DNA of 64,000 nt from Bryobacterales bacterium (GCA_963780485.1 CAWACO010000003.1:174855-238854); one strand, 5' to 3'; numbered from the stretch's first letter, positions 39,290-51,226 are shown. A program made the numbers and translations. Notes: generated by a model from the sequence alone, not told the origin.

Positions 39290-39516
39290 TCAGCCCACGT
39301 GGCGGCAGGTCTTCGACGATCCGTTCTGCATAATCACACCCCGCCGAGAGTCTCCGACGAACCACCTAGCCCGACTAAGAGGAATACCCATCTCTACGTA
39401 ATGCCTCAAAACCTATCTAACATGCGCTGAACATCCGATGAAATGGTTGCGACATTCGACGAATTGCCAGGAGCACAGATTTGTATCTGGTCCAAATATT
39501 TCGAGCAAGCCCCCTG

Positions 39517-40185
39517 ATGGGCCTCGCCCTATGCATGTGCCTGGCGACCATCTTCTGGTGTCTCCTTCTGGCGCGCCGGCAGCAAGGCCGCTTCGATCGC
39601 ATGTTGACCGGCTTGCTCGGCATGATCGCGATTTACGAAGCGCTGCGCGTATTGAAGGATTGCGGCGTCATCCGCTTTCCCGGTTTCCAGCAACTGAACG
39701 GCTGGGTGGATTTCATTATCGCCGGCACTTACCTGCTCGCCGGTTTCATTCTGAAGTACTCGGGCAGCGACCGCGCCAACACCAAGGTACGGCTGCGGCT
39801 GGTGGAAGCCAACGAAAAGACCATGGATGTCGGAAGGGCGCCCAGCGCTCCAGAGACAACGCACGCGGTTTTCGATGCCTCTCCGCTCGCCACCTTCGCC
39901 GTGGATACCAAGGGCGTAGTGATCTATTGGAACGGGGCTGCGGAGCGGCTGTTGGGCTGGAAGCGAGAGCATATACTGGGCCAGCGGCTGCCTTTCGAAG
40001 GAAAAGGTCCGCTAAGGAACAGTCGTGGACACGACATCGAGGCCGCCATTTGGACTGCGCCGATTAACTCTCCTAATGGATCACCCCGGGGCACATTGAT
40101 CATTGCAGCCGGCAGTGTGGCGTTACGCGATGCGGGCCTGGCTCCAAATCTGCCTTCCAAAACCCAATTGGCGCTGAATCACTGA
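39517..40185 (+). CDS. Membrane-anchored stand-alone PAS domain protein
   Basis: Three hydrophobic helices, then a PAS-like core FDASPLATFAVDTKGVVIYWNGAAERLLGWKREHILGQRLP. There is no kinase or other output domain. Confidence 0.55.
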   Translation: MGLALCMCLATIFWCLLLARRQQGRFDRMLTGLLGMIAIYEALRVLKDCGVIRFPGFQQLNGWVDFIIAGTYLLAGFILKYSGSDRANTKVRLRLVEANEKTMDVGRAPSAPETTHAVFDASPLATFAVDTKGVVIYWNGAAERLLGWKREHILGQRLPFEGKGPLRNSRGHDIEAAIWTAPINSPNGSPRGTLIIAAGSVALRDAGLAPNLPSKTQLALNH

Positions 40186-40261
40186 GCCGTCACAGCTTCC
40201 GTAACCCGTAACCGCTTGCCGACGCGAGAGAGCGGCGCTAAGCTTTGAGGGTGGAGTTCAC

Positions 40262-41473
40262 ATGCCCAAGTTCTCGAATCGCCGTAACTTTCTGAAGAGT
40301 AGCGCAGTAAGCGCGGCGCTCGCCGCCAGCGCGAGCGCAGGACGCGCCCAATCGACCGATGATAAACCAGCGCCGGACGATCCCACCCAGGCGCCGGGTT
40401 CGCCCGCCCGGGCTTATGGCGAGCGATCGCGGTTCGAGAAGACAGTTCGTGCTCCGTCGTCGCAAGGGACCTCCTCGGGCGCGCCTTTGCAGGATTTGAA
40501 CGGCATCATCACGCCGTCCTCGCTCCATTTCGAGCGGCATCATTCCGGAGTTCCGGACATCGATCCGCGCCGCCATCGCCTGATGATCCACGGCATGGTG
40601 GATCGCCCGCTGGTCCTCAGCATGGATGAGCTGAAGCGTTTCCCCTCCGTCTCGCGTATCCATGTCATGGAATGCTCCGGCAATGGTTTCCGGAACAAGG
40701 GAGCCAAAACGGTTCAGGACGCCCACGGCCTGGTGAGTTGCTCGGAGTGGACCGGCGTACCCCTAGCGCTGCTGCTGCGCGAAGCCGGCGTGCAGCCGGG
40801 CGCCAGTTGGATCGTTGCGGAGGGTTCCGATGCCGCCAAGATGACGCGCAGCGTGCCGCTGGCGAAAGCCATGAACGACGTGCTGCTGGCCTACGGTCAG
40901 AATGGCGAGGCGATACGTCCCGAGCAAGGCTATCCGCTGCGGCTGTTCGTTCCCGGTTGGGAGGGAAACATCAGCATCAAGTGGCTGCGCCGCATCAAAG
41001 TGGTGGACCAACCTTACATGACGCGCGAAGAGACTTCGAAGTACACCGACCTGATGCCGGATGGCAAGGCGCGCCAGTTCACCTTCGAGATGGATCCGAA
41101 ATCGCTCATCACTTACCCGTCCGGCGGTCAAAAGCTGGCGAATCCGGGCTTCTACGAGATTTCGGGATTGGCCTGGTCGGGCCGCGGCGCGATTCGAAAA
41201 GTCGAAGTTTCGGTGGACGGCGGCCGAACTTGGCGCGATGCGCAATTGCAGTCGCCCGTGCTTCCGATCGCGTTCACGCGGTTTCGTTTCGGATGGAAAT
41301 GGGATGGCAGCGAAGTGGTGCTGCAATCGCGATGTACCGATGAACACGGCGACACGCAGCCCGTATTCGCCGATCTGGTGAAGGCGCGAGGCGATCACTG
41401 GAGTTATCACTTTAATCCCATCCAAAGCTGGAAGGTCTCGGCCGATGGGAGCGTGCAGAATGCGCTGGTTTAG
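40262..41473 (+). CDS. Sulfite dehydrogenase molybdopterin subunit (SorA/SoxC-like) with a Tat signal
   Basis: Tat signal RRNFLKSSAVSAALAASASAGRA. Sulfite-oxidase-family motifs follow (FERHHSGVPDID, ECSGNG with the Mo-ligand Cys context, and the dimerisation domain). Confidence 0.85.
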   Translation: MPKFSNRRNFLKSSAVSAALAASASAGRAQSTDDKPAPDDPTQAPGSPARAYGERSRFEKTVRAPSSQGTSSGAPLQDLNGIITPSSLHFERHHSGVPDIDPRRHRLMIHGMVDRPLVLSMDELKRFPSVSRIHVMECSGNGFRNKGAKTVQDAHGLVSCSEWTGVPLALLLREAGVQPGASWIVAEGSDAAKMTRSVPLAKAMNDVLLAYGQNGEAIRPEQGYPLRLFVPGWEGNISIKWLRRIKVVDQPYMTREETSKYTDLMPDGKARQFTFEMDPKSLITYPSGGQKLANPGFYEISGLAWSGRGAIRKVEVSVDGGRTWRDAQLQSPVLPIAFTRFRFGWKWDGSEVVLQSRCTDEHGDTQPVFADLVKARGDHWSYHFNPIQSWKVSADGSVQNALV

Positions 41474-42005
41474 TACGCGCTCGCTCTGGCTGGTGCTAGG
41501 CGTAAGTCTCACGTGGCCGCTCGCGGCGCAGTCGCCTACCTACGGTTTGGGCCGTGCGGCGAAGCCCGACGAGATCAAAGCCTGGGACTTCGCCATCGGT
41601 CCGGATGGCAAGGAGCTGCCGCCGGGCAGCGGGAGCGCGGCTGAGGGCGCTAAGATTTACGCCGCCAATTGCGCTGGTTGCCACGGCAAAACCGGCCAGG
41701 AAGGTCCCAACGATGTCCTGGTCGGCGGGCAAGGCACGCTCAACACCAACAAGCCGGTGAAGACGGTCGGAAGCTACTGGCCCTATGCGACGACAGTTTG
41801 GGATTACATCAATCGGGCCATGCCGTATAACAAGCCAGGCAGTCTCACCGCGGACCAGGTCTATGCGGTCACTGCCTACCTGCTGTCGTTGAACGGCATC
41901 ATCAGAGAAGACGCCGTCATGAATGTGAAGACGCTGCCGCAAGTGAAGATGCCGAACCGCAATGGCTTTATCGGCGATCCGCGCCCCGATTGGAAGAGCA
42001 GGTGA
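41460..42005 (+). CDS. c-type cytochrome partner of sulfite dehydrogenase (SorB/SoxD-like)
   Basis: Signal peptide MRWFSTRSLWLVLGVSLTWPLAAQ and the CAGCHG haem motif. It overlaps the sorA-like stop by 14 nt. Confidence 0.75.
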   Translation: MRWFSTRSLWLVLGVSLTWPLAAQSPTYGLGRAAKPDEIKAWDFAIGPDGKELPPGSGSAAEGAKIYAANCAGCHGKTGQEGPNDVLVGGQGTLNTNKPVKTVGSYWPYATTVWDYINRAMPYNKPGSLTADQVYAVTAYLLSLNGIIREDAVMNVKTLPQVKMPNRNGFIGDPRPDWKSR

Positions 42006-43150
42006 ACGCGAAGGCCGGCGCGCAAGAAAATCTGAATTCGATTCACGACGATTTGATCGACCTGAGCCACCGGATCCACGCCAAACCGGAGCTTGGATTC
42101 GAGGAGGAACACGCGGCCAACTGGATTTGCGAGTTTCTCGATGGCGTGGGATTCGAGGTCGAGCGCGGGATCTGCGATCTTCCGACCGCCTTCGCCGCCA
42201 AAGCGGGCAACGGTCCCGTGCATGTCGCCATCTGCGCCGAATACGACTCTCTACCTGGAATCGGGCACGCCTGCGGGCACAATATCATCGCGGCTTCGTC
42301 GTGTGGCGCGGCCATCGCCGCGGCAGCAGTGGCCGATGATGCGGGCTTGACCGTACATCTGATCGGCACGCCCGCCGAAGAAGTTGGTAATGCCAGCGGC
42401 AAGATCCTGATGCTCCAGCGCGGAGCCTTCGAAGGGATGCATCTTGCGATGATGGTGCACCCCGCGCCTTTCGATGCCGTGATGCCCAAGATCATCGCCG
42501 CCTCGATGTTCGAAGTTGCCTACACCGGCAAGGAATCGCACGCATCGGCTTTTCCAGAGCTGGGCATCAACGCCGCGGACGCGCTCACCGTGGCCCAGAC
42601 TGCGATCGGACTTCTGCGCCAGCACATTCGGCCGTCGGATAAGATTCATGGTATTGTTACGCACGGTGGCGATGCTCCCAACATCGTTCCGGCGCACACC
42701 CGCGCCAAGTACATCATCCGCTCCGAAACGGTCAAGGATCTCGCCGAACTCCGCCGCAAGGTTCACCGATGCTTCGACGCCGGTGCAATTGCTACCGGCT
42801 CGACCATGGAAATCATAGGCGGCGACCAGCCCTATGCCGAGATGATTCACGATTCCGCGATCGCGGACCTCTATCGAAAAAATGCGGAAACTTTGGGCCG
42901 GGTTTTTCCGGACTTCGGACCGCTGCGCGACCGTGTGGCTGCGTCCACCGATATGGGGAATGTTTCTCTGGCAGTGCCATCGATTCATCCTATGATTGGG
43001 ATCGAACCGGGAACAGCGGTGAACCATCAGCCTGAATTCACTGCGCACTGCGTCAAGCCTGCCGCGGATAAGGCCCTGTTGGACGGCGCGCTCGCGATGT
43101 CGTGGACAGCGATTGACGCTGCGGCCGAGTCACCGCGGCGATCCGCTTAG
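41990..43150 (+). CDS. M20 family amidohydrolase/peptidase (AbgB/M20D-like)
   Basis: IHAKPELGFEEEHAANW and EYDSLPGIGHACGHNI give the metal-ligand context. The start is ambiguous between TTG 41990 and GTG 42002. The GTG overlaps the cytochrome stop as GTGA. Confidence 0.85.
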   Translation: MEEQVNAKAGAQENLNSIHDDLIDLSHRIHAKPELGFEEEHAANWICEFLDGVGFEVERGICDLPTAFAAKAGNGPVHVAICAEYDSLPGIGHACGHNIIAASSCGAAIAAAAVADDAGLTVHLIGTPAEEVGNASGKILMLQRGAFEGMHLAMMVHPAPFDAVMPKIIAASMFEVAYTGKESHASAFPELGINAADALTVAQTAIGLLRQHIRPSDKIHGIVTHGGDAPNIVPAHTRAKYIIRSETVKDLAELRRKVHRCFDAGAIATGSTMEIIGGDQPYAEMIHDSAIADLYRKNAETLGRVFPDFGPLRDRVAASTDMGNVSLAVPSIHPMIGIEPGTAVNHQPEFTAHCVKPAADKALLDGALAMSWTAIDAAAESPRRSA

Positions 43151-44823
43151 GGCCGCTCACCCAGCAGCGTCTTCAACCGGTCATAGCCGGCGCGGCTCAC
43201 TTGAAGTTGCGTCCCATCGGTAAGCACCGCGACGCGGCTGTCTTTGGCATAGGGCTCGATCTTCGCGACGCGTTCCAGGTTCACGATGACCGAGCGGTGA
43301 ATTCGCACGAAGCACTGCGGATCGAGCGCGGCTTCCAAGCTCGAAATGGTCTGTTGCTTGAGAAAGCTCTTCCCCTGGCTGTGCAGCTCGACATAATCGT
43401 CCTGGGCTTCGGCGTAATCCAGTTTGTCGACCGGGATGATATGCACGCGCGCGCCATCTTTTACGACGATGCGTTCCAGGTGCTGCTCGGGTGGCCGGGC
43501 GGCGCGGGCTAATTCTGGCGCGGGCGGCAGCTTCTCGCCTAGCCTCTGCCGGGCCCGATCGAGAGCTTTGTCGAAGCGCTCCTGGCTGAAAGGCTTCAGC
43601 AGATAGTCCACCGCGTGCGCATCGAAGGCCTTCATTGCGTATTGATCGAAAGCCGTAACGAAAATCACCGCTACGTCGCGGTCGATCAATTCCAGCACTT
43701 CGAAGCCGTCGAGTTTCGGCATCTGCACGTCCAGGAACACCAGATCGGGCTTACGCTCGGAAATGGCTTTCACCGCTTCGAATCCATTGGCGCACTCCGC
43801 CAGGATATCGATCTCGCGGCTGGACGCCAGATATTCGCGCAGCAGGTGGCGCGCCAGCTCTTCATCGTCCACGATGACTGCGCCGATCCGGCTTCGCTGG
43901 TGAACGGAGCTTCCGGCGGTCGCAGCCTGCTCGGAGCCCGAGTCGCGCTCCAGATTCTTCAAATCCACCAGCAGCTCCCGTGCTGATTGATAGCGCCGCT
44001 CCCGGTCTTTTTCGAGACATTTCCGGACGACCCTTTCCAGACCCTCGGGAACCTCATAGTTGAAGCGGGCAATGGCATCCGGTTGCGCTTGCAGAATACG
44101 GGCCATGGTCTCCGATGGCGTGGCGCCGGAGAATGGCAGCCGACCGGTGGCCATCTCGTACAGCACCACGCCCAGGCTAAAGATGTCGGTGCGATAATCG
44201 ACGTCTCGACCGAGCGCCTGCTCCGGGCTCATGTAGCTCACCGTACCGACCACCAGTCCGGCGCTGGTCAGCAACTGGGTCTCGTCCCGGCCTTTCGCAT
44301 CGGCCTCCAATTTCGCCAGCCCGAAATCCAGCACCTTGACGTGGCCGCGCGGCGTGATCATCAGGTTGGCCGGCTTGATATCGCGATGGACGATTCCTTT
44401 CGAGTGCGCGTCATCTAATGCGTCGGCCACCTGCATTCCGACCTGTACAAGTTCAGAAATCTTCAGCGGGCCTTCCAGGATGCGCTGCGCCAGCGGCCGG
44501 CCCTCGACGTATTCCATCGCCAGGAACCAAAGCTCGCCTTGCTGGCCGATTTCGAAAATGGTGGCGACGTTGGGATGCGTGAGCGCCGATGCCAGCCTGG
44601 CTTCCTGGACGAAGCGATGCATCCGGTCGGGATCAGCGGCAAACTCCGGCGGCAACACCTTCAGCGCCACGCGGCGTCCGAGCCTGGTGTCGTCGGCGAG
44701 GTAAACGGCGCCCATGCCACCTTGGCCCAGCGGCGAAACCACGCGATAGTGCGCGATCAGCGTGCCGGACGCCACCAAATCGACCATGATCTCCTCCATG
44801 TTACACATGCACCGCACCGTCAT
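43147..44823 (-). CDS. Hybrid regulator: Hanks-type Ser/Thr protein kinase, receiver domain and LytTR DNA-binding domain
   Basis: Kinase motifs are GQGGMGAVY, VALKVL, HRDIKPANLMI, DFGLAK and SYMSPEQ. Receiver motifs are VIVDDEEL...DLVFLDVQMPKLDG...IFVTAFDQYA...DYLLKP. The LytTR domain is VKDGARVHIIPVDKLDYAEAQDDYVELHS...FVRIHRSVIVNL. The ATG overlaps the kinase gene stop as ATGA. Confidence 0.85.
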   Translation of the reverse strand: MTVRCMCNMEEIMVDLVASGTLIAHYRVVSPLGQGGMGAVYLADDTRLGRRVALKVLPPEFAADPDRMHRFVQEARLASALTHPNVATIFEIGQQGELWFLAMEYVEGRPLAQRILEGPLKISELVQVGMQVADALDDAHSKGIVHRDIKPANLMITPRGHVKVLDFGLAKLEADAKGRDETQLLTSAGLVVGTVSYMSPEQALGRDVDYRTDIFSLGVVLYEMATGRLPFSGATPSETMARILQAQPDAIARFNYEVPEGLERVVRKCLEKDRERRYQSARELLVDLKNLERDSGSEQAATAGSSVHQRSRIGAVIVDDEELARHLLREYLASSREIDILAECANGFEAVKAISERKPDLVFLDVQMPKLDGFEVLELIDRDVAVIFVTAFDQYAMKAFDAHAVDYLLKPFSQERFDKALDRARQRLGEKLPPAPELARAARPPEQHLERIVVKDGARVHIIPVDKLDYAEAQDDYVELHSQGKSFLKQQTISSLEAALDPQCFVRIHRSVIVNLERVAKIEPYAKDSRVAVLTDGTQLQVSRAGYDRLKTLLGERP

Positions 44824-45869
44824 ACATGCGCGGCACAGGGTAAATCCACCTCCACCACGAATCGTTGATCCGACGTCACCGTATCGACGCGCGCCTCGTT
44901 TTCATAGAGCGCGCGAAGCCGGTTGCGCACGTTCTGCAGCCCTAAGCCATGCCGTCTGGCGGCCGGCGCATCCGGGTCGAATTCATTGTCGATTTTGACG
45001 TGCAGGCGTCCGTCGCGGCAGCGGGCTTCCAGGCGGATGATCCCACCGTCCACCAGCCCGGCGATGCCATGCTTCACGGCGTTTTCCACCAGCGGCTGCA
45101 GGAACAGCGGCGGCACAATGCAATCGTCGCAGCCTGCGTCGGTTATAAGTTCCACCTTCAGCCGCGCACCGAAGCGCACCTGCTCCACATCCAGGTAGGC
45201 TTTGGCTAGCGCCAGTTCATCGCGCCATGAAATACTTTGTTTTTCACCCAGGCTCAGGGTGCTGCGCAAGAAGTCGGAAAGCTTGATGCACATTTCGCGC
45301 GCGCGAACGCCGTCGACCGTGGCCAGGGCGCTGATCGAGTTCAGACTGTTGAACAGAAAATGCGGGTTGATCTGAGCTTTGAGCGCCTTTAATTCCGCCT
45401 CTTTGGCCATGGTGCGCGCGGCCTGCTCGCGTGTTTCGGCTTCCTTCGAGGATTCCACCGACAGCAGCACGTAATGCAGCGCCACGGCCAGCAGGTACAG
45501 CAAAACGCCGATGCCGAACAGCAACGGAAGTTGAGGGCTGAACCGTTGATCCAGCTGCGCAAAGCGGCGGCTTAAAGCGATCGCTAAAGCTTTAGCGAGT
45601 ACGATCCAGAGCAGCGCCACCACCACCGCGGCGGCGCCGTGATTCATCAGGAGCTTGGGCAGTTGGGACAAAGGCAGGACTCGGCATAGATACCACGGCG
45701 TCATGCAAATGAACGCATAAACCAAACAGAGAGGCAGCGCCAGAAGTTCCGCCTCGAGTAGTGGGACCCGGCCCGTAACCGACAGCAGGTAGCCCAGCAT
45801 TCCCGCCAGCATCAGCCAAACGAGCAGATATAGGATAATCCTGCCTCGGGTGGCAAGGAGCGGATGCAT
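44820..45869 (-). CDS. LytS/AlgZ-type sensor histidine kinase (PF06580-like)
   Basis: 349 aa with about 5 N-terminal TM helices, the H-box QINPHFLFNSLNSISAL and an HATPase region (PLFLQPLVENAVKHG, GLGLQNVRNRL). Confidence 0.85.
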   Translation of the reverse strand: MHPLLATRGRIILYLLVWLMLAGMLGYLLSVTGRVPLLEAELLALPLCLVYAFICMTPWYLCRVLPLSQLPKLLMNHGAAAVVVALLWIVLAKALAIALSRRFAQLDQRFSPQLPLLFGIGVLLYLLAVALHYVLLSVESSKEAETREQAARTMAKEAELKALKAQINPHFLFNSLNSISALATVDGVRAREMCIKLSDFLRSTLSLGEKQSISWRDELALAKAYLDVEQVRFGARLKVELITDAGCDDCIVPPLFLQPLVENAVKHGIAGLVDGGIIRLEARCRDGRLHVKIDNEFDPDAPAARRHGLGLQNVRNRLRALYENEARVDTVTSDQRFVVEVDLPCAAHV

Positions 45870-45884
45870 AAAAGGTTGGTCCGA

Positions 45885-46712
45885 TTAGTTGCGCAGACTG
45901 ATGCCGCCGAAGACGACTGAGCCGGTGATTACTAAATGTGGAGATTTGGCGTTCGGCTCGGTCTTAGATTGCATGGTTTTGTCTTCGACGCCGCCGAAGA
46001 TGGTCATGGCCCGATTGATAATAGTCCAATTGTCGGGTACGCGAACTTCGAGGCCACCGCAAACTACGTTCACATCGATCACTGCCTGATCAACGGTCAT
46101 GCCCGCACCCCGAAGGTCGAATTCGACGCCACCACACACCGCGACCGCATCGCCGCCGCGAAAATCCGGCGTGTTGATTCGCCGCTTACTGCCTCCGAAG
46201 ACTGCAAAGGCGTTGCAACTCGAGCTTTCATCGATGGGCCCGGATCCCGCCGATCCGGGCACGCCGGCCACGCCAGTCGCGTTTGCCAGGTATCTTTTGC
46301 GGTCGATCGAGCGCAGCAACATACTGAGCCCGAAAGCGATCAGAAGCAGAGGCCAGATCAGATTAAAATCGAAAACCACAATGTCAAGGTTGTCCAGAAG
46401 CAGAAGCGCGCCGGCCAACGTGACCACTCCACCCCAGATATAACCGGCGGGTGTTACAGATTCCAAAATCTTGGCGATGCCCACCACGATGAGCAGCACC
46501 GGCCAATAACGCCAGATGTCGTGGAAGCGGACGATTCCCATGTTGTCGAGCAGAATCATGAGCCCGATGAGGACGATCACCCCACCGACCACCATGCCGC
46601 CCATGCCGGTACCGTAGCGCTGGCGCCGTTCCATGCGCCGCTGCATCCGGGCGTTTATGCGATCGTGGACCCGTTTAGTGATGTCGTCTTTTAGCTGTTC
46701 GTTGTAGTCCAC
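45885..46712 (-). CDS. LiaF-like membrane protein (DUF5668-type TM region plus DUF2154-like C-terminal domain)
   Basis: After a charged N-terminus there are 4 TM helices (GGVIVLIGLMILLDNMG, WPVLLIVVGIAKILE and others). The C-terminal beta-rich domain is VFGGSKRRINTPDFRGGDAVAVCGGVEFDLR...GSVVFGGISLR, as in LiaF C-termini. Confidence 0.7.
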   Translation of the reverse strand: MDYNEQLKDDITKRVHDRINARMQRRMERRQRYGTGMGGMVVGGVIVLIGLMILLDNMGIVRFHDIWRYWPVLLIVVGIAKILESVTPAGYIWGGVVTLAGALLLLDNLDIVVFDFNLIWPLLLIAFGLSMLLRSIDRKRYLANATGVAGVPGSAGSGPIDESSSCNAFAVFGGSKRRINTPDFRGGDAVAVCGGVEFDLRGAGMTVDQAVIDVNVVCGGLEVRVPDNWTIINRAMTIFGGVEDKTMQSKTEPNAKSPHLVITGSVVFGGISLRN

Positions 46713-46752
46713 GGTTCGATAATACAGCGGCTAGGTCGTTGGTTCGACAGGA

Positions 46753-46785
46753 GATCGGCGAACGGTGGTGGGGGATCGGCGAACG
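46753..46785. repeat. Two identical 12-bp direct repeats GATCGGCGAACG with a 21-bp period, in the promoter region of the liaF-like operon
   Basis: The copies lie at 46753-46764 and 46774-46785. On the operon (minus) strand they read CGTTCGCCGATC. They sit 40-73 nt upstream of ATG 46712. Confidence 0.6.
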
Positions 46786-46851
46786 TACTGTGGGGGGTGG
46801 CAAAACGCTTTCGCAGGACGTACTGTGTGTAGGGAAAGGCTATCGCAGGTT

Positions 46852-46883
46852 GGAAACCTGCGCCACCCGGAACCTGCGCCACC
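46852..46883. repeat. Tandem 16-bp duplication GGAAACCTGCGCCACC / CGGAACCTGCGCCACC
   Basis: 14 of 16 positions are identical, and the copies are directly adjacent. The repeat lies in the 250-bp gap between the DUF1328 gene end and the liaF-like gene start. Confidence 0.6.
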
Positions 46884-46962
46884 TGGACGCGGCGACCGCG
46901 GTTCTCGATTCTGCGGGACGCCGCGTCCTGTGCGCTTTCAGCAACCGGTTTTGGCCGACTGC

Positions 46963-47127
46963 TTAAACTCTTCTAGCAAGGCCCCCGATCAAGGAAATCA
47001 CGAACAAGACCAGAAAGACCATGAACAGGATTCTTGCTATCCCCCCGGCGGCGGCTTCGATTCCTGTAAAACCGAAGAGCGCCGCAACGAGGGCAATTAT
47101 AAAAAAGACTACCGCCCAGTAAAGCAT
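46963..47127 (-). CDS. DUF1328 (UPF0391/YtjA-like) small membrane protein, 54 aa; not in the ORF track
   Basis: My translation of the minus strand is [54 protein letters not shown]-stop. GAGGAGG lies 5 nt upstream of the ATG. The FGF(T/G)GI..AA..IA(K/R)ILF pattern is the DUF1328 signature. Confidence 0.7.
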
Positions 47128-47141
47128 AATTCCTCCTCAAC

Positions 47142-47699
47142 CTAGATGCGAGATCCGGGACGATCGCTAGTGGCGTAGTCCGCGGACGCCTCACCGGTTG
47201 AGGAAATATCCTCGGCTCCGGTTTCCTCCAGGATTTTCTTGGCGCGCTTTACCCATTCGGAGTCGTCGCAGTGGACCGACAACAGAATCCCACCGGACTT
47301 GATGCGCCCTTCATAGCGCTTAGCTTCATATTCCGGGATACCCATGCCGACCAAGGAACCGACCAGGCCACCGATCGCTCCGCCGGCGCCGGCTCCGGCC
47401 AGAAGGCCCATAATCGGCCCGGCGGCGATAAATGGCCCCAGTCCGGGAATGGCCAATGCCCCGATCCCGGCCAGCCATCCGAGCGCCCCGCCGATGACGC
47501 CACCGGTCACCCCGCCAGTGGTTGCGCCTTCCGGCGCCTTGGTCTCTTTCTTAGCTGCCAGATCCTTGGTGCCCAAATTCTCAGGCATCAGAACCGAAAC
47601 ATCGGTGCTCCGGAAGCCTGCGGATCGCAGCCTCTCCAGAGCCTGGCCCAGAGAAACGGTGTCCTTAAAAATTCCAAAAACTGCTGTGTTTTTCCCCAT
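47142..47699 (-). CDS. General-stress-type protein with a YflT/GSP17M-like domain split by a glycine-zipper membrane segment
   Basis: AVFGIFKDTVSLGQALERLRSAGFRSTDVSVL and GIPEYEAKRYEGRIKSGGILLSVHCDD resemble B. subtilis YflT halves. The central GGVTGGVIGGALGWLAGIGALAIPGLGPFIAAGPIMGLLAGAGAGGAIGG is a Gly-zipper. Confidence 0.6.
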   Translation of the reverse strand: MGKNTAVFGIFKDTVSLGQALERLRSAGFRSTDVSVLMPENLGTKDLAAKKETKAPEGATTGGVTGGVIGGALGWLAGIGALAIPGLGPFIAAGPIMGLLAGAGAGGAIGGLVGSLVGMGIPEYEAKRYEGRIKSGGILLSVHCDDSEWVKRAKKILEETGAEDISSTGEASADYATSDRPGSRI

Positions 47700-47739: not shown

Positions 47740-48117
47740 TTACTCTGATTTCGATTTTGAGGTATTGGGACCCACCGTTAGTTCGCTGGTGACTTTACCG
47801 TTGCCCGCAATGCTAGTGGCTTTGTCCTCGACGGCCTTCTTCTCGTCGTCCGTCTTCACTTGTCCCTTCAAAGTGACGGTACCATCCCGGGTCAGAATCT
47901 TGACGTTATGAGCTTGGGTAGAGAGCGATTTGTCCGATACGATCGCTTTGCGGATCTGTTGCGTCAGCTCTCGATCGGCTTTGTTCTGTGTAGCTGTGGA
48001 CGCCGTTTGCGGCGGTTGATCCGCTTGGCCAAATAATGGACCCGCCAGAGTTAACCCCGCCGATACAGCCAGCAATTGCGAAAGTAACGCTGCGTTAGAA
48101 ACGAGTGTTCTCTTCAT
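47740..48117 (-). CDS. BON domain protein (OsmY-like), secreted
   Basis: Signal peptide, then the BON motif IRKAIVSDKSLSTQAHNVKILTRDGTVTLKGQVKTDDEKKAVEDKA. Confidence 0.8.
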   Translation of the reverse strand: MKRTLVSNAALLSQLLAVSAGLTLAGPLFGQADQPPQTASTATQNKADRELTQQIRKAIVSDKSLSTQAHNVKILTRDGTVTLKGQVKTDDEKKAVEDKATSIAGNGKVTSELTVGPNTSKSKSE

Positions 48118-48259: not shown

Positions 48260-49078
48260 TTACTTGGCTTTGCGCAGATAGATGTTGCCGTTGAAAGTCG
48301 TGAACTGAATCTCAGGACCACCACCATTGATCAGAGCGTACATGGCGCGATCGAACTGCACGCGATATTTCCCTTGGCCGGACCGATTCTCCTGAACCAC
48401 GGGTTGCCGGGCGGATGAATCCACGGCGACCTCGAAGTCGCTATAAACTGCGCCATTGTCGGTCTTCAGCTTTACCCTGGCCTTGATATCCGCAGGCAGA
48501 GTGACGTCGATATCGCCATTGAGCGAGCTGAACGACATGGGCTTGGCGGCGGTTACCTTATCAAGCGAAACCAGAACCTTGCCGTTCAAGGCGTGAACCA
48601 CGGCAGCGCCCGAAATATGCGTGGCGGTGGCGTTGCCATTGGTATTGTCAATTTCCACATCGCCAACAATGTGATCCACGATGATGTCGCCGCCGTTCAC
48701 CGAGTGCAACTTGAGCGACGTATTGAAGGGAACCTGGATGCTTAGCTCGATGTTGTCGTTGATTGCCCGCGTGCCAACGGTAATTACGTTATCGGATTCC
48801 TCGACCACCATGCCGGTGCCGCCGATATCGATCCGGCGCATGCCGTCCGACCGCTCCGGGCGTCGATTGCGCCGTCCCGAGTCGCCTTGCGGGCGAGCTT
48901 CCACGATGGCATCCTTGCCATCGTAGCCCTTGACTGTGATGCCGCCGTTGAGCAACGAAGCGTGCAGCGACTTCGGCCGCGCCGGATCGCTGAATGGAAC
49001 GGTGACCCGGTCAGGCTGCGCATCCTGGCAGAATGCCGCGCCCGCCGCAAACAACAATAAGATTGCTAACTTTTGCAT
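48260..49078 (-). CDS. DUF4097 beta-strand-repeat protein, secreted
   Basis: Signal peptide MQKLAILLLFAAGAAFCQ. Repeated N-G-x-I/V strands follow (LLNGGITV, SVNGGDIIV, NTNGNATA, ALNGKVLV, SLNGDIDV, TFNGNIYL). Confidence 0.7.
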   Translation of the reverse strand: MQKLAILLLFAAGAAFCQDAQPDRVTVPFSDPARPKSLHASLLNGGITVKGYDGKDAIVEARPQGDSGRRNRRPERSDGMRRIDIGGTGMVVEESDNVITVGTRAINDNIELSIQVPFNTSLKLHSVNGGDIIVDHIVGDVEIDNTNGNATATHISGAAVVHALNGKVLVSLDKVTAAKPMSFSSLNGDIDVTLPADIKARVKLKTDNGAVYSDFEVAVDSSARQPVVQENRSGQGKYRVQFDRAMYALINGGGPEIQFTTFNGNIYLRKAK

Positions 49079-49080
49079 GA

Positions 49081-49914
49081 TTACTGTCCTCGATTGATAA
49101 TTCGTATGCTTCCATTTAACGTGTCAAAGTTGAACTCGGGTCCGCCATTGCCGATTCGCAGGCCGGTGGAACGATCGGTGCGAAAGATGAATTTGCCGTC
49201 CCGGCGTTCGGAAACGGGGCTCAGGGCCGGCAGCGGAATCACATCGAAATCGGTATATGCCTGCCCGTTGAAGGTCTTCACCCGCACGTCGGCGGAGAGG
49301 TTCGGGCGGAAGGATGTCTCGATGCTTCCGTTGACGGTCTTGAAGGAAGAATTCTTGGCGGGATTCCGGGCGAACAGCACCGCGATCTTGCCGTTCACTG
49401 TATGTACCGGACCGGAGCCTGCCACTTCACGCATTTCTATGCCGCCATTTACGTTGGCCACGTCGAAATCGCCGGTAGTGCTCTCGACCCGGACGTCACC
49501 GCCGTTCACCGTGCCCAGCCGCAATATCGTGGCTGCGGGAACCTTAATATCGAAATCGTAAGTAACGCGGTAGTCGCGATGGGAACGGTCCCGGAAGCCA
49601 GAACGGCCGTCGTCACAATGGCAACGAAAAGGCCCGTCTACATAAAACGTTAGTGTGTCACCGGATTGCGTGGTGTCTAGTTTCACCTCGCGCTTAGCCG
49701 CGTCCAGGCGCTCTTGGGATTCGGCCCGGATGGTTTTCTCGGTGACCATCTGGATCTCGCTGCCGTTGTAACCGGTAACATGAATGAAGCCGTTAACATT
49801 GTCTATCTCCAGGCGAGCGGCCGCCGGAAAATTGCGGCGGATGGTTTCTTTCTCTTCCTGATCGAAACCGTAGACCAGCGTGGCCGCGCAGGCGAAGATG
49901 ATGAAGGTTTTCAT
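49081..49914 (-). CDS. DUF4097 beta-strand-repeat protein, secreted (paralogue of the downstream gene)
   Basis: It has the same N-G-x-I repeat pattern (NVNGFIHV, TVNGGDVRV, NVNGGIEM, TVNGKIAV, TVNGSIET, TLNGSIRI). Start ATG 49914 overlaps the anti-sigma stop by 4 nt. The ORF track starts at 49935. Confidence 0.7.
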   Translation of the reverse strand: MKTFIIFACAATLVYGFDQEEKETIRRNFPAAARLEIDNVNGFIHVTGYNGSEIQMVTEKTIRAESQERLDAAKREVKLDTTQSGDTLTFYVDGPFRCHCDDGRSGFRDRSHRDYRVTYDFDIKVPAATILRLGTVNGGDVRVESTTGDFDVANVNGGIEMREVAGSGPVHTVNGKIAVLFARNPAKNSSFKTVNGSIETSFRPNLSADVRVKTFNGQAYTDFDVIPLPALSPVSERRDGKFIFRTDRSTGLRIGNGGPEFNFDTLNGSIRIINRGQ

Positions 49915-50681
49915 TGCAGTTGTTTCAGCGCCCATTGAGCGCGCTGCCTCACATCCGGATTCACATCCTGGCCCGACAACAAAAATTGAATCGCCGACGC
50001 GGCCGATTTCTCGTGCAGCTCCACGATCTGATCCAGAATCGCGATCTGCACCAGCGGCGAATCCTGCTTGGCGAGAGCCTGCACCAGCCCTTTCCTGCCG
50101 ACGGGGCTGTCGGTGAAGTTGCGGACCGCGTCCACGGCCGCCAGCCGGACATTGACATTGGAGTCGTGATCTAGCGTGGTCAGAAGGGCCGATAACACTT
50201 GTGGGTCCGACTGCTCGACGCGATAGGCATAGTTCACTCCGCGTAAGCGGTCACTGGCATTTTGCTGCTGCAACAGGGAAAGAGCGACCAGTTGACGCAT
50301 GTTATAAACCTCCCCGCGCAATTGCGAAACTTCGGACGTATCCCGGCCGCGCACGAAGTAGCCGGTGGCGATGCCGATCACCAGAATCGCCGCGGCGCTA
50401 GCGGCTTGGAAGGCCGGATGCCGCACCCACCACAGGGTTTTGCGACGCTCTCCTTCGCGCTGGCGCCAGGCACGTAGCGAATCGTAAAAACGCGCCCGCA
50501 TGTTCAGACTGGGATCCTCTTCGGGCAGCGCGCCCAGCGTACCCCAGAGATCGCGCAGCTCATGGGCCTCGGCTTGGCATCGCTCGCAGGAATCCAAGTG
50601 AGCGCGAAATTCGCCCACTGAATCTTCCAGCGTGCCCCGCCAATAATCGACGAATTGTGTTCTGGCTTCTTCGCAGTTCAT
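49911..50681 (-). CDS. Anti-sigma factor: zf-HC2, one TM helix and a C-terminal HEAT-repeat domain
   Basis: The zf-HC2 motif is MNCEEARTQFVDYWRG...HLDSCERCQAE. The TM helix is AASAAAILVIGIATGYFV. C-terminal HEAT-like repeats are NVNVRLAAVDAVRNF, SPLVQIAILDQIVEL and NPDVRQRAQWALKQL. Confidence 0.75.
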   Translation of the reverse strand: MNCEEARTQFVDYWRGTLEDSVGEFRAHLDSCERCQAEAHELRDLWGTLGALPEEDPSLNMRARFYDSLRAWRQREGERRKTLWWVRHPAFQAASAAAILVIGIATGYFVRGRDTSEVSQLRGEVYNMRQLVALSLLQQQNASDRLRGVNYAYRVEQSDPQVLSALLTTLDHDSNVNVRLAAVDAVRNFTDSPVGRKGLVQALAKQDSPLVQIAILDQIVELHEKSAASAIQFLLSGQDVNPDVRQRAQWALKQLQ

Positions 50682-51226
50682 GATGCCTTCTCTCCGGCGA
50701 GTTCGAAATAGATTTGTCCTAGCGCCCGCACGGCGCGATAGACCCTCACCTTTACCGCTCCCACGTCGCAGCCCAAAATGGAAGCAATCTCTTCGTACTT
50801 CAGATTCTGGTAACGGCTCAGCACCAATAGTTCTCTTTTTTCGAGCGGCAGAAGGGACAGGGCTCGCTTGAGCAACGTGATCTCTTGTTTGCGCTTCAGA
50901 TTCTCGTCCATCTTGTTACCGCTCGCAAATTCCCTCTCACCCAAGGCGACCTCGAACTTGCGCTTCCCGATGGAGTCCACATGCGCGTTACGGGCGATCT
51001 GGTACATCCAGGCGGTGAAGGATCGATCCGGCTGATAGCTCTTCCGGTATTTCAACATCCGGAAGAAGACATCCTGCACCAGGTCTTCGCTGAGATCGCG
51101 ATTTCCATTCACATGCACGAAGTAATTGAACAACGGGCGATGATGCCGCTCAAACAGGATCGCGAGCCCACCGAGGTCGCCATCCCGGACGGCCTGCATC
51201 AGGCTGCTGTCCGTTGCTTCGTACAC
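50678..51226 (-). CDS. ECF-type RNA polymerase sigma factor (sigma-70 family)
   Basis: Region 2 (LFNYFVH...EDLVQDVFFRMLK...FTAWMYQIARN) and region 4 (LPLEKRELLVLSRYQNLKYEEIASILGCDVGAVKVRVYRA). Confidence 0.9.
   Translation of the reverse strand: MYEATDSSLMQAVRDGDLGGLAILFERHHRPLFNYFVHVNGNRDLSEDLVQDVFFRMLKYRKSYQPDRSFTAWMYQIARNAHVDSIGKRKFEVALGEREFASGNKMDENLKRKQEITLLKRALSLLPLEKRELLVLSRYQNLKYEEIASILGCDVGAVKVRVYRAVRALGQIYFELAGEKAS

Follow-up and report, generated by a model that had tools for sequence, protein, structure and literature searches.

What is a Ser/Thr protein kinase doing at the head of a DNA-binding response regulator, and how did it come to be there? The question is raised by three tightly packed, tandem open reading frames (ORFs) on the minus strand of a Bryobacterales bacterium (Acidobacteriota, soil), at 43147-46712 of the 64-kb stretch of DNA analysed here (the window, whose coordinates are used throughout). 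They encode a LiaF-like membrane protein, an AlgZ-type histidine kinase and a single protein in which a Hanks-type Ser/Thr kinase precedes a receiver (REC) and a LytTR DNA-binding domain. This Pkinase-REC-LytTR fusion, which joins the two main bacterial phosphorylation systems in one protein, is real and intact and, it appears, undescribed. ORF translation recovers the genes where the first-pass annotation, made from the sequence of the window, had placed them, with the 15 nt that it reported between the LiaF-like stop codon and the histidine kinase ATG:

45885-46712, minus strand: LiaF-like membrane protein gene, 275 amino acids (aa); assigned by Pfam and hydropathy
44820-45869, minus strand: AlgZ-type PF06580 histidine kinase gene, 349 aa; assigned by Pfam, transmembrane (TM) helices and motifs
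43147-44823, minus strand: Pkinase-REC-LytTR fusion gene, 558 aa as the maximal ORF and 546 aa from a start at M13

Within the fusion protein, numbered from the maximal ORF, three domains and a linker can be delimited:

43975-44748, minus strand: Hanks-type Ser/Thr kinase domain, residues 26-283 (Pfam, PknB match)
43888-43953, minus strand: Ser/Ala-rich, variable linker between kinase and receiver, residues ~291-312 (low predicted local distance difference test score, pLDDT; low conservation)
43561-43878, minus strand: receiver domain, residues 316-421 (Pfam)
43162-43449, minus strand: LytTR DNA-binding domain, residues 459-554 (Pfam)

A Pfam profile search confirms the domain order that had been read from the translation, with Pkinase (PF00069, 167.4 bits against a cut-off of 31.7), Response_reg (PF00072, 89.3 against 30.2) and LytTR (PF04397, 79.4 against 22.6) all far above threshold. 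Each of the motifs on which that order was first based (GQGGMGAVY, VALK, HRDIKPANL, DFG and SPE in the kinase; DLVFLDVQMP and DYLLKP in the receiver) is present. The best solved match of the kinase domain is PknB (8e-55), to which every motif aligns, with T182 and T186 of the activation loop corresponding to PknB T171 and T173. The residues of the PknB back-to-back dimer, which we take to be L33 and the R10-D76 pair, align with L48 of the fusion, which is invariant, and with H25 and E91, which are nearly so. A search for TM segments in the fusion protein found none, and the protein is predicted to be soluble and cytoplasmic.

Conservation indicates that both phosphorylation modules have been kept in working order. 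Homologues were collected in two protein searches, the first covering 5.8 billion proteins and the second seeded from a divergent member. The first yielded upwards of 120 clusters that share the Pfam architecture at 77-100% identity, the second added about 90 more fusion clusters, and the alignment comprises at least 211 full-length, non-redundant sequences (90%-identity clusters from NCBI, ENA, JGI and Logan), with the fusion kept at identities down to ~45%. Across 211 homologues the catalytic apparatus of the kinase is 99-100% conserved: the glycine-rich loop (G33, G35, G38), K55, E74, H146-R147-D148, K150, N153, D166-F167-G168, T194, S199-P200-E201, D213 and R277. In the activation loop, T182 is conserved in 94% and position 186 is Ser or Thr in all. 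Receiver residues D319 and D320, the acceptor D365, T390 and K410 are each 100% conserved. The catalytic Lys and Asp of the kinase, which the first-pass annotation had described as intact-looking, are retained both in the alignment to PknB and among the homologues, and the acceptor Asp of the receiver among the homologues. The linker shows low conservation and indels. Pairwise comparison of the window gene with five orthologous loci gives ratios of nonsynonymous to synonymous substitution rates (dN/dS) of ~0.13 (kinase), ~0.05 (receiver), ~0.06 (LytTR) and 0.1-1.0 (linker), values that are approximate because dS is near saturation; by this measure all three domains are under purifying selection. 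The junction between kinase and receiver (~43888-43953), which had been called as one frame, was checked in independent assemblies and is a single frame in at least 211 clusters.

An AlphaFold2 model of the fusion contains three well-folded domains separated by disordered linkers, with a predicted template modelling score (pTM) of 0.54; pLDDT is ~88-93 in the LytTR domain and falls below 50 at linker residues 296-310. Fixed docking of the kinase on REC or LytTR was considered and rejected, the model offering no confident interface. Flexible linkers with no fixed interface fit regulation by proximity rather than by rigid intramolecular contact.

The first codon of the fusion gene merits separate comment. 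The tetranucleotide ATGA, in which the first-pass annotation saw the fusion ATG overlapping the histidine kinase stop codon, is present at 44820-44823, but its use as a start is improbable. Homologues begin at the M13-aligned residue in 105 of 211 cases, at M9 in 48 and at M1 in six; GGAGGAG lies immediately 5' of the M13 ATG (44787-44785); a public gene call on the same contig also begins the gene there; and residues 1-14 are disordered in the AlphaFold model. The start is thus probably M13 (44787) rather than the overlapping ATG, and because the evidence favours M13, the translational overlap is probably not real. The resulting gap of ~33 nt between histidine kinase and fusion is still consistent with an operon.

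The two upstream products also conform to their first description as a LiaF-like protein and a multi-TM PF06580 histidine kinase, on both Pfam and hydropathy evidence. The LiaF-like protein begins with a short, charged N-terminal stretch, continues with four TM helices (~residues 37-136) and ends in a β-rich domain of the LiaF-like_C/Toastrack type. Among Pfam models, it scores 76.8 bits with LiaI-LiaF-like_TM1 and 68.1 bits with LiaF-TM (cut-off 27 for each), and a sub-threshold 22.2 bits with LiaF-like_C (cut-off 29). Nine orthologues behave alike, all matching LiaF-TM strongly and LiaF-like_C at 20-34 bits, two of the nine above the cut-off. Partnered with a PF06580 kinase and a LytTR regulator rather than with a LiaS (HisKA_3) kinase and a NarL-type LiaR, the protein is LiaF-like in architecture and not a member of LiaFSR, and the 'envelope stress' label attached to the operon is an analogy with that system. 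The histidine kinase has four predicted TM helices at residues 11-138, joined by loops of at most 20 residues, followed by an H-box (NPH, His170), an N-box (ENAVKHG) and a G-box (GLGLQN); these boxes are kept in the histidine kinases of fused loci. It scores 89.3 bits with His_kinase PF06580 (cut-off 25.2) and a sub-threshold 17.8 bits with HATPase_c (cut-off 26.4), its sole solved relative is 6swj (1.9e-20), and a Pfam search gave no match to the LytS-type 5TMR-LYT sensor domain. Four helices with short loops and no 5TMR-LYT domain make the topology AlgZ-like, not LytS/BtsS-like, a predicted layout of the intramembrane-sensing kind. AlgZ itself is described as crossing the membrane four times within its first 150 residues (PMC4064291). 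In one other locus (L085, 3673-5004), the histidine kinase beside fusion P0287 is called at 443 aa with an additional GntR-family Pfam match and without the exact NPHF H-box string, which could reflect either a variant kinase or faulty gene calling.

LytTR domains bind paired direct repeats of ~9-10 bp, ~21 bp apart, near the -35 element of target promoters. Two candidate elements precede the LiaF-like gene:

46754-46784, minus strand: tandem direct repeat GTTCGCCGAT-N11-GTTCGCCGAT with a 21-bp period, candidate LytTR operator
46719-46747, minus strand: possible activator-dependent promoter, read from the sequence

The repeat is situated 42-72 nt 5' of the LiaF-like start codon and is the sole match to its pattern in the 64-kb window at three or fewer mismatches, where 0.01 would be expected; a third, degenerate copy sits further upstream at 46790-46807. 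The same repeat occurs at the same position in loci L001 and L004, and degenerate copies with 21-bp spacing in L006, L007, L008 and the kinase-less sister locus L013. The core of the proximal copy, CCGTTCGCC, fits the AlgR consensus of Pseudomonas aeruginosa, CCGTTCGTC (PMC4064291), at eight of nine positions. The possible promoter comprises a weak -35-like TCGAAC (46747-46742), a 17-nt spacer and a -10-like TATTAT (46724-46719) ending 6 nt ahead of the LiaF-like GTG start, a geometry that would give a leaderless or near-leaderless transcript and that is kept in L001 and L004 (TCGAAG/TCGAAC ... TAGGCT ... ATG). A conserved AlgR-like repeat in this position suggests that the operon is autoregulated through the candidate LytTR operator. 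Further upstream in the same intergenic region, 46855-46886 holds a perfect-register tandem repeat, AACCTGCGCCACC(C/T)GG twice, adjoined by a 13-nt inverted repeat (46885-46897 and 46916-46928, 92% complementary); together these could be the terminator of an upstream small gene or another regulatory site.

How much of this arrangement is new? The pairing of a LiaF-like gene with an AlgZ-type kinase and a LytTR regulator had been singled out as unusual, and it is not. One genome per GTDB species was scanned with receiver-derived patterns, 80 loci were kept, neighbouring genes were assigned by tblastn, and the counts are lower bounds. LiaF-like and PF06580 kinase genes adjoin the REC-LytTR gene in 77 of the 80 species loci among the matches listed. 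These include Acidobacteriota (Bryobacterales, Acidiferrales, Solibacteraceae, Vicinamibacteria), Bacteroidota (Pedobacter, Sphingobacterium, Draconibacterium, Terrimonas and others), Oxalobacteraceae (Duganella, Massilia, Janthinobacterium), Ignavibacteriales, Eisenbacteria and others. The kinase domain is fused to the regulator in at least five species loci (L004-L008), all of them Bryobacterales/Terriglobia metagenome-assembled genomes (MAGs), and 72 further loci among the matches listed, from several phyla, carry the cassette without it. The three-gene cassette is therefore old and widespread, and the new element is the added kinase domain, not the operon. Of the proposal that the unit as a whole was undescribed, the part concerning the kinase fusion stands, whereas the operon is common and partly described already.

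The simplest history of the fusion is a local one. In a neighbour-joining (NJ) tree of the REC-LytTR parts, computed with no bootstrap, the Bryobacterales fusions form one clade nested in kinase-less acidobacterial regulators and sister to L013 and L014. In both of these sisters the LiaF-like and kinase genes lie on the opposite strand, convergent with the regulator gene. The nearest non-fused kinase domains, at 60-67% identity, belong to acidobacterial receptor-type kinases with C-terminal PD40 or TPR regions. Because the fusion clade is nested among kinase-less regulators and its nearest kinases are of the local receptor type, a lineage-specific joining is indicated, in which a domain from the lineage's large pool of receptor-type kinases would have been attached to the N-terminus of a pre-existing regulator. 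With this origin, REC-LytTR now occupies the place that the TM and sensor regions hold in those receptor kinases. Two divergent fusions, P0139 (46%) and P0160 (42%), which might have arisen independently, are set apart from the Bryobacterales clade by the NJ tree. Their REC-LytTR parts are 44-50% identical to fused and unfused relatives about equally, P0139 has no close relatives in the protein search, and their separate placement could be long-branch attraction.

Among the closest characterised systems, AlgZ(FimS)/AlgR of Pseudomonas aeruginosa shares a four-TM PF06580-type kinase and a REC-LytTR regulator; the likeness is one of domain types, TM layout and the DNA motif. To our knowledge, no LiaF-like accessory is encoded in the alg operon, nor does AlgR carry a kinase domain. 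The regulator also falls below the BtsR equivalog NF008677 (181 bits against 246), its best NCBIfam match, and below LytR NF010684 (120 against 375). LiaFSR of Bacillus subtilis and VraTSR of Staphylococcus aureus share a LiaF-type gene immediately upstream of an intramembrane-sensing kinase and its regulator (PMC11237479), and the operon studied here probably resembles them in being autoregulated as well. It differs from LiaFSR in its PF06580 rather than HisKA_3 kinase, in its LytTR rather than NarL/LuxR-type regulator, in having no LiaI or LiaH/PspA gene nearby and in the Ser/Thr kinase borne by the regulator. The pairing of LiaF-like proteins with LytTR is likewise not new, because passages of Ravi et al. 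2024 (PMC11237479) report LytTR in operons with LiaI-LiaF-TM/Toastrack proteins in Firmicutes; those passages include neither a fused Ser/Thr kinase nor the PF06580 context or multi-phylum breadth found here. The LiaF-like/AlgZ-type kinase/LytTR cassette is thus a widespread yet uncharacterised membrane-sensing module, made experimentally tractable by its predicted operator.

Precedents for the kinase fall into several groups. The pairs Stk1-CovR, PrkC-WalR, StkP-RitR and PknH-DosR likewise bring Ser/Thr and His-Asp signalling together on one transcription factor (PMC6213207). In those pairs the kinase is separate and usually membrane-bound, whereas here it is covalently part of the regulator and lacks TM and sensor regions. 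PknB/Stk1 and the acidobacterial Pkinase-PD40/TPR kinases similarly place the catalytic domain N-terminal to the regulatory region; unlike them, the fusion has no TM helix, PASTA, PD40 or TPR, and it reaches 327.8 bits with NCBIfam PknB_PASTA NF033483 (cut-off 450), only the catalytic part aligning. HstK-type cyanobacterial hybrids (PMC2176072, PMC1183210) combine a Hanks kinase and a two-component module in one polypeptide, the partner being a histidine kinase and not a receiver with a DNA-binding domain. Similar in design are likewise uncharacterised Pkinase-REC-HD_5 proteins of the HD-GYP type encoded in two MAGs, one of them Chloroflexi (L073, 6007-7851, 614 aa; L069, 5995-7827, 610 aa), each gene followed directly by one for a HisKA-HATPase_c-REC-REC hybrid histidine kinase. 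Here too an N-terminal Hanks kinase is fused to a complete regulator beside a histidine kinase; the output (HD_5/HD-GYP) and histidine kinase family (HisKA) differ, and the shared parts are 38% identical. N-terminal accretion of a kinase onto a complete response regulator has, on this evidence, recurred. The first-pass annotation knew of no characterised Pkinase-REC-LytTR regulator, and full-text searches of the literature found no description of one; public annotations name such fusions 'protein kinase' or 'LytT family response regulator'.

What, then, might the fused kinase do? The reading that we put forward, tentatively and a little short of an even call, is that the locus encodes an autoregulated AlgZ/AlgR-type system with a LiaF-like accessory, whose regulator has gained a Hanks kinase as a second, REC-gated output. 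The LiaF-like protein would modulate the intramembrane-sensing histidine kinase, which would in turn phosphorylate D365 of the fusion. Phosphorylated LytTR regulators dimerise on paired repeats; dimerisation through phosphorylated REC would here bring a pair of LytTR domains to the 21-bp-spaced repeat that precedes the LiaF-like gene, thereby activating the operon. The same event would pair the kinase domains, allowing trans-autophosphorylation of T182 and T186, and the activated kinase would provide a second, longer-lived Ser/Thr output toward other substrates and possibly the regulator itself. The activation step is modelled on the related receptor kinases, whose sensors act through dimerisation and whose catalytic domain lies N-terminal to the sensor, the same order as in the fusion. 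It is possible, though we would sooner doubt than affirm it, that the fusion is the first natural response regulator in which phosphorylation of the Asp gates both an attached Hanks kinase and a DNA-binding domain. If true, one two-component input would drive both transcription and a slower-decaying O-phosphorylation cascade, and together with the HD-GYP version from Chloroflexi the fusion would define an unrecognised class of 'kinase-armed' response regulators.

Several observations weigh against the REC-gated scheme. Its direction of control, from REC to kinase, is drawn only from architecture and analogy. The candidate operator is a sequence prediction, and a consensus promoter scan called no sigma-70 promoter at the putative operator and promoter. 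The order LiaF-like gene, histidine kinase gene, fusion gene is colinear in nine of ten fused loci (L001, L004-L008, L084-L086 and the window), and the exception, L005, has its LiaF-like and histidine kinase genes inverted and 4 kb from the fusion; with the arrangements in L013 and L014, this indicates that the cassette tolerates rearrangement within Bryobacterales. The divergent fusions P0139 and P0160 are orphans, with neither histidine kinase nor LiaF-like neighbours, so the fused kinase may not need the cassette at all. The near-saturated dS and the lack of bootstrap values in the NJ tree count on the same side.

The alternative that survives best, although we think it unlikely, reverses the flow of control and makes the kinase an input. 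Its substrates would be Ser/Thr residues of the same protein, in the linker, REC or LytTR domain, reached in cis or in the partner of a dimer; it would thereby tune or override the Asp switch while itself answering to other kinases, phosphatases or metabolites, as a hard-wired form of the crosstalk seen in Stk1-CovR, PrkC-WalR and PknH-DosR. In-trans phosphorylation of CovR, WalR, RitR and DosR by Hanks kinases is well documented (PMC6213207), and the flexible tether of the AlphaFold2 model would permit self-phosphorylation. Possible acceptor sites exist in the Ser/Ala-rich linker, where S295 is Ser or Thr in 70% of homologues, and, more weakly, at S494 of LytTR, which is Ser in 92% of fusions and in 30-34% of kinase-less relatives. 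The linker, however, evolves almost neutrally and with indels. When the REC-LytTR parts of the fusions were compared with those of kinase-less relatives, no strictly conserved fusion-specific Ser/Thr or interface residue was found, and no REC or LytTR Ser/Thr combines strict conservation in the fusions with absence from those relatives; relaxed thresholds yield weak candidates at M397, D401, A402, H481, S494 and R530. Full retention of the acceptor Asp and of a cognate histidine kinase further indicates that the classical switch has not been replaced.

More doubtful still is that the fusion achieves co-expression only, delivering a constitutively active soluble kinase, indifferent to whether the receiver is phosphorylated, from the autoregulated promoter and in fixed stoichiometry with the regulator so that its abundance, not its activity, reports the signal. 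A disordered linker with no confident inter-domain packing predicted would suit such an arrangement, as would the putative autoregulatory operator upstream of the operon, and the orphan fusions indicate that the protein can exist outside it. Against this, a separate gene in the operon would do the same job, and covalent fusion kept across at least 211 clusters, to ~45% identity, points to selection for physical coupling; the analogous Pkinase-REC-HD-GYP fusion from another phylum likewise suggests that kinase and REC work as a unit. In principle the domain could have no catalytic role and serve for dimerisation or as a scaffold, as some pseudokinases do, or it could be a relic in decay, but 99-100% conservation of K55, E74, D148, N153, D166 and the glycine-rich loop in 211 homologues, with dN/dS of ~0.13, leads us to reject a degenerate pseudokinase and makes any non-catalytic role very improbable. 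The chance that a frameshift, misassembly or chimeric contig joined separate kinase and regulator genes is negligible, given that four data sources supply at least 211 independent clusters with the same single-frame architecture, on contigs that include some of 0.5-3.7 Mb.

Whichever way control runs, the fusion is of wider use. Crosstalk between Hanks kinases and two-component systems has otherwise been seen only where a kinase phosphorylates a regulator in trans, and the logic behind it is under debate; here both modules have been kept, by the conservation of their residues, apparently catalytically intact across hundreds of soil acidobacterial lineages. The protein offers a compact, purifiable test case in which to learn whether the Ser/Thr kinase is governed by Asp phosphorylation or governs it, and which targets the kinase has. 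The fusion is a clean natural experiment in coupling Ser/Thr kinases to two-component signalling; as a counterweight, it is domain accretion in a kinase-rich lineage.

The surroundings of the operon contribute further features. Just upstream of the LiaF-like operon lies an extracytoplasmic function (ECF) sigma operon (48260-51226, minus strand), separated from it by three genes of general-stress or membrane type:

50678-51226, minus strand: ECF sigma factor
49911-50681, minus strand: zf-HC2/HEAT anti-sigma factor
49081-49935 and 48260-49078, minus strand: two DUF4097 'Toastrack' proteins
47740-48117: BON-domain protein
47142-47699, minus strand: YflT/ActD-like glycine-zipper stress protein
~46962-47126, minus strand: DUF1328 small membrane protein, 54 aa

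The ECF/Toastrack cluster directly precedes the LiaF-like, kinase and fusion genes in L084, not in L001 or L086, and may be a second Toastrack-based envelope-signalling module kept nearby. On the other side, the gene immediately next to the fusion gene in L001, L084 and L086, and convergent with it, encodes a small PAS protein; in the window this PAS gene is displaced by ~3 kb by an inserted block within 39481-43150 (plus strand):

40262-41473, plus strand: twin-arginine translocation (TAT)-signal molybdopterin oxidoreductase
41445-42005, plus strand: cytochrome c
41990-43150, plus strand: M20 peptidase

In L001 (4124-4914), gene calling splits the LiaF-like gene into two ORFs (192 and 71 aa), the halves of which overlap by tblastn; this split gene, on a 2.9-Mb contig, may reflect a frameshift, a pseudogene or a sequencing error.

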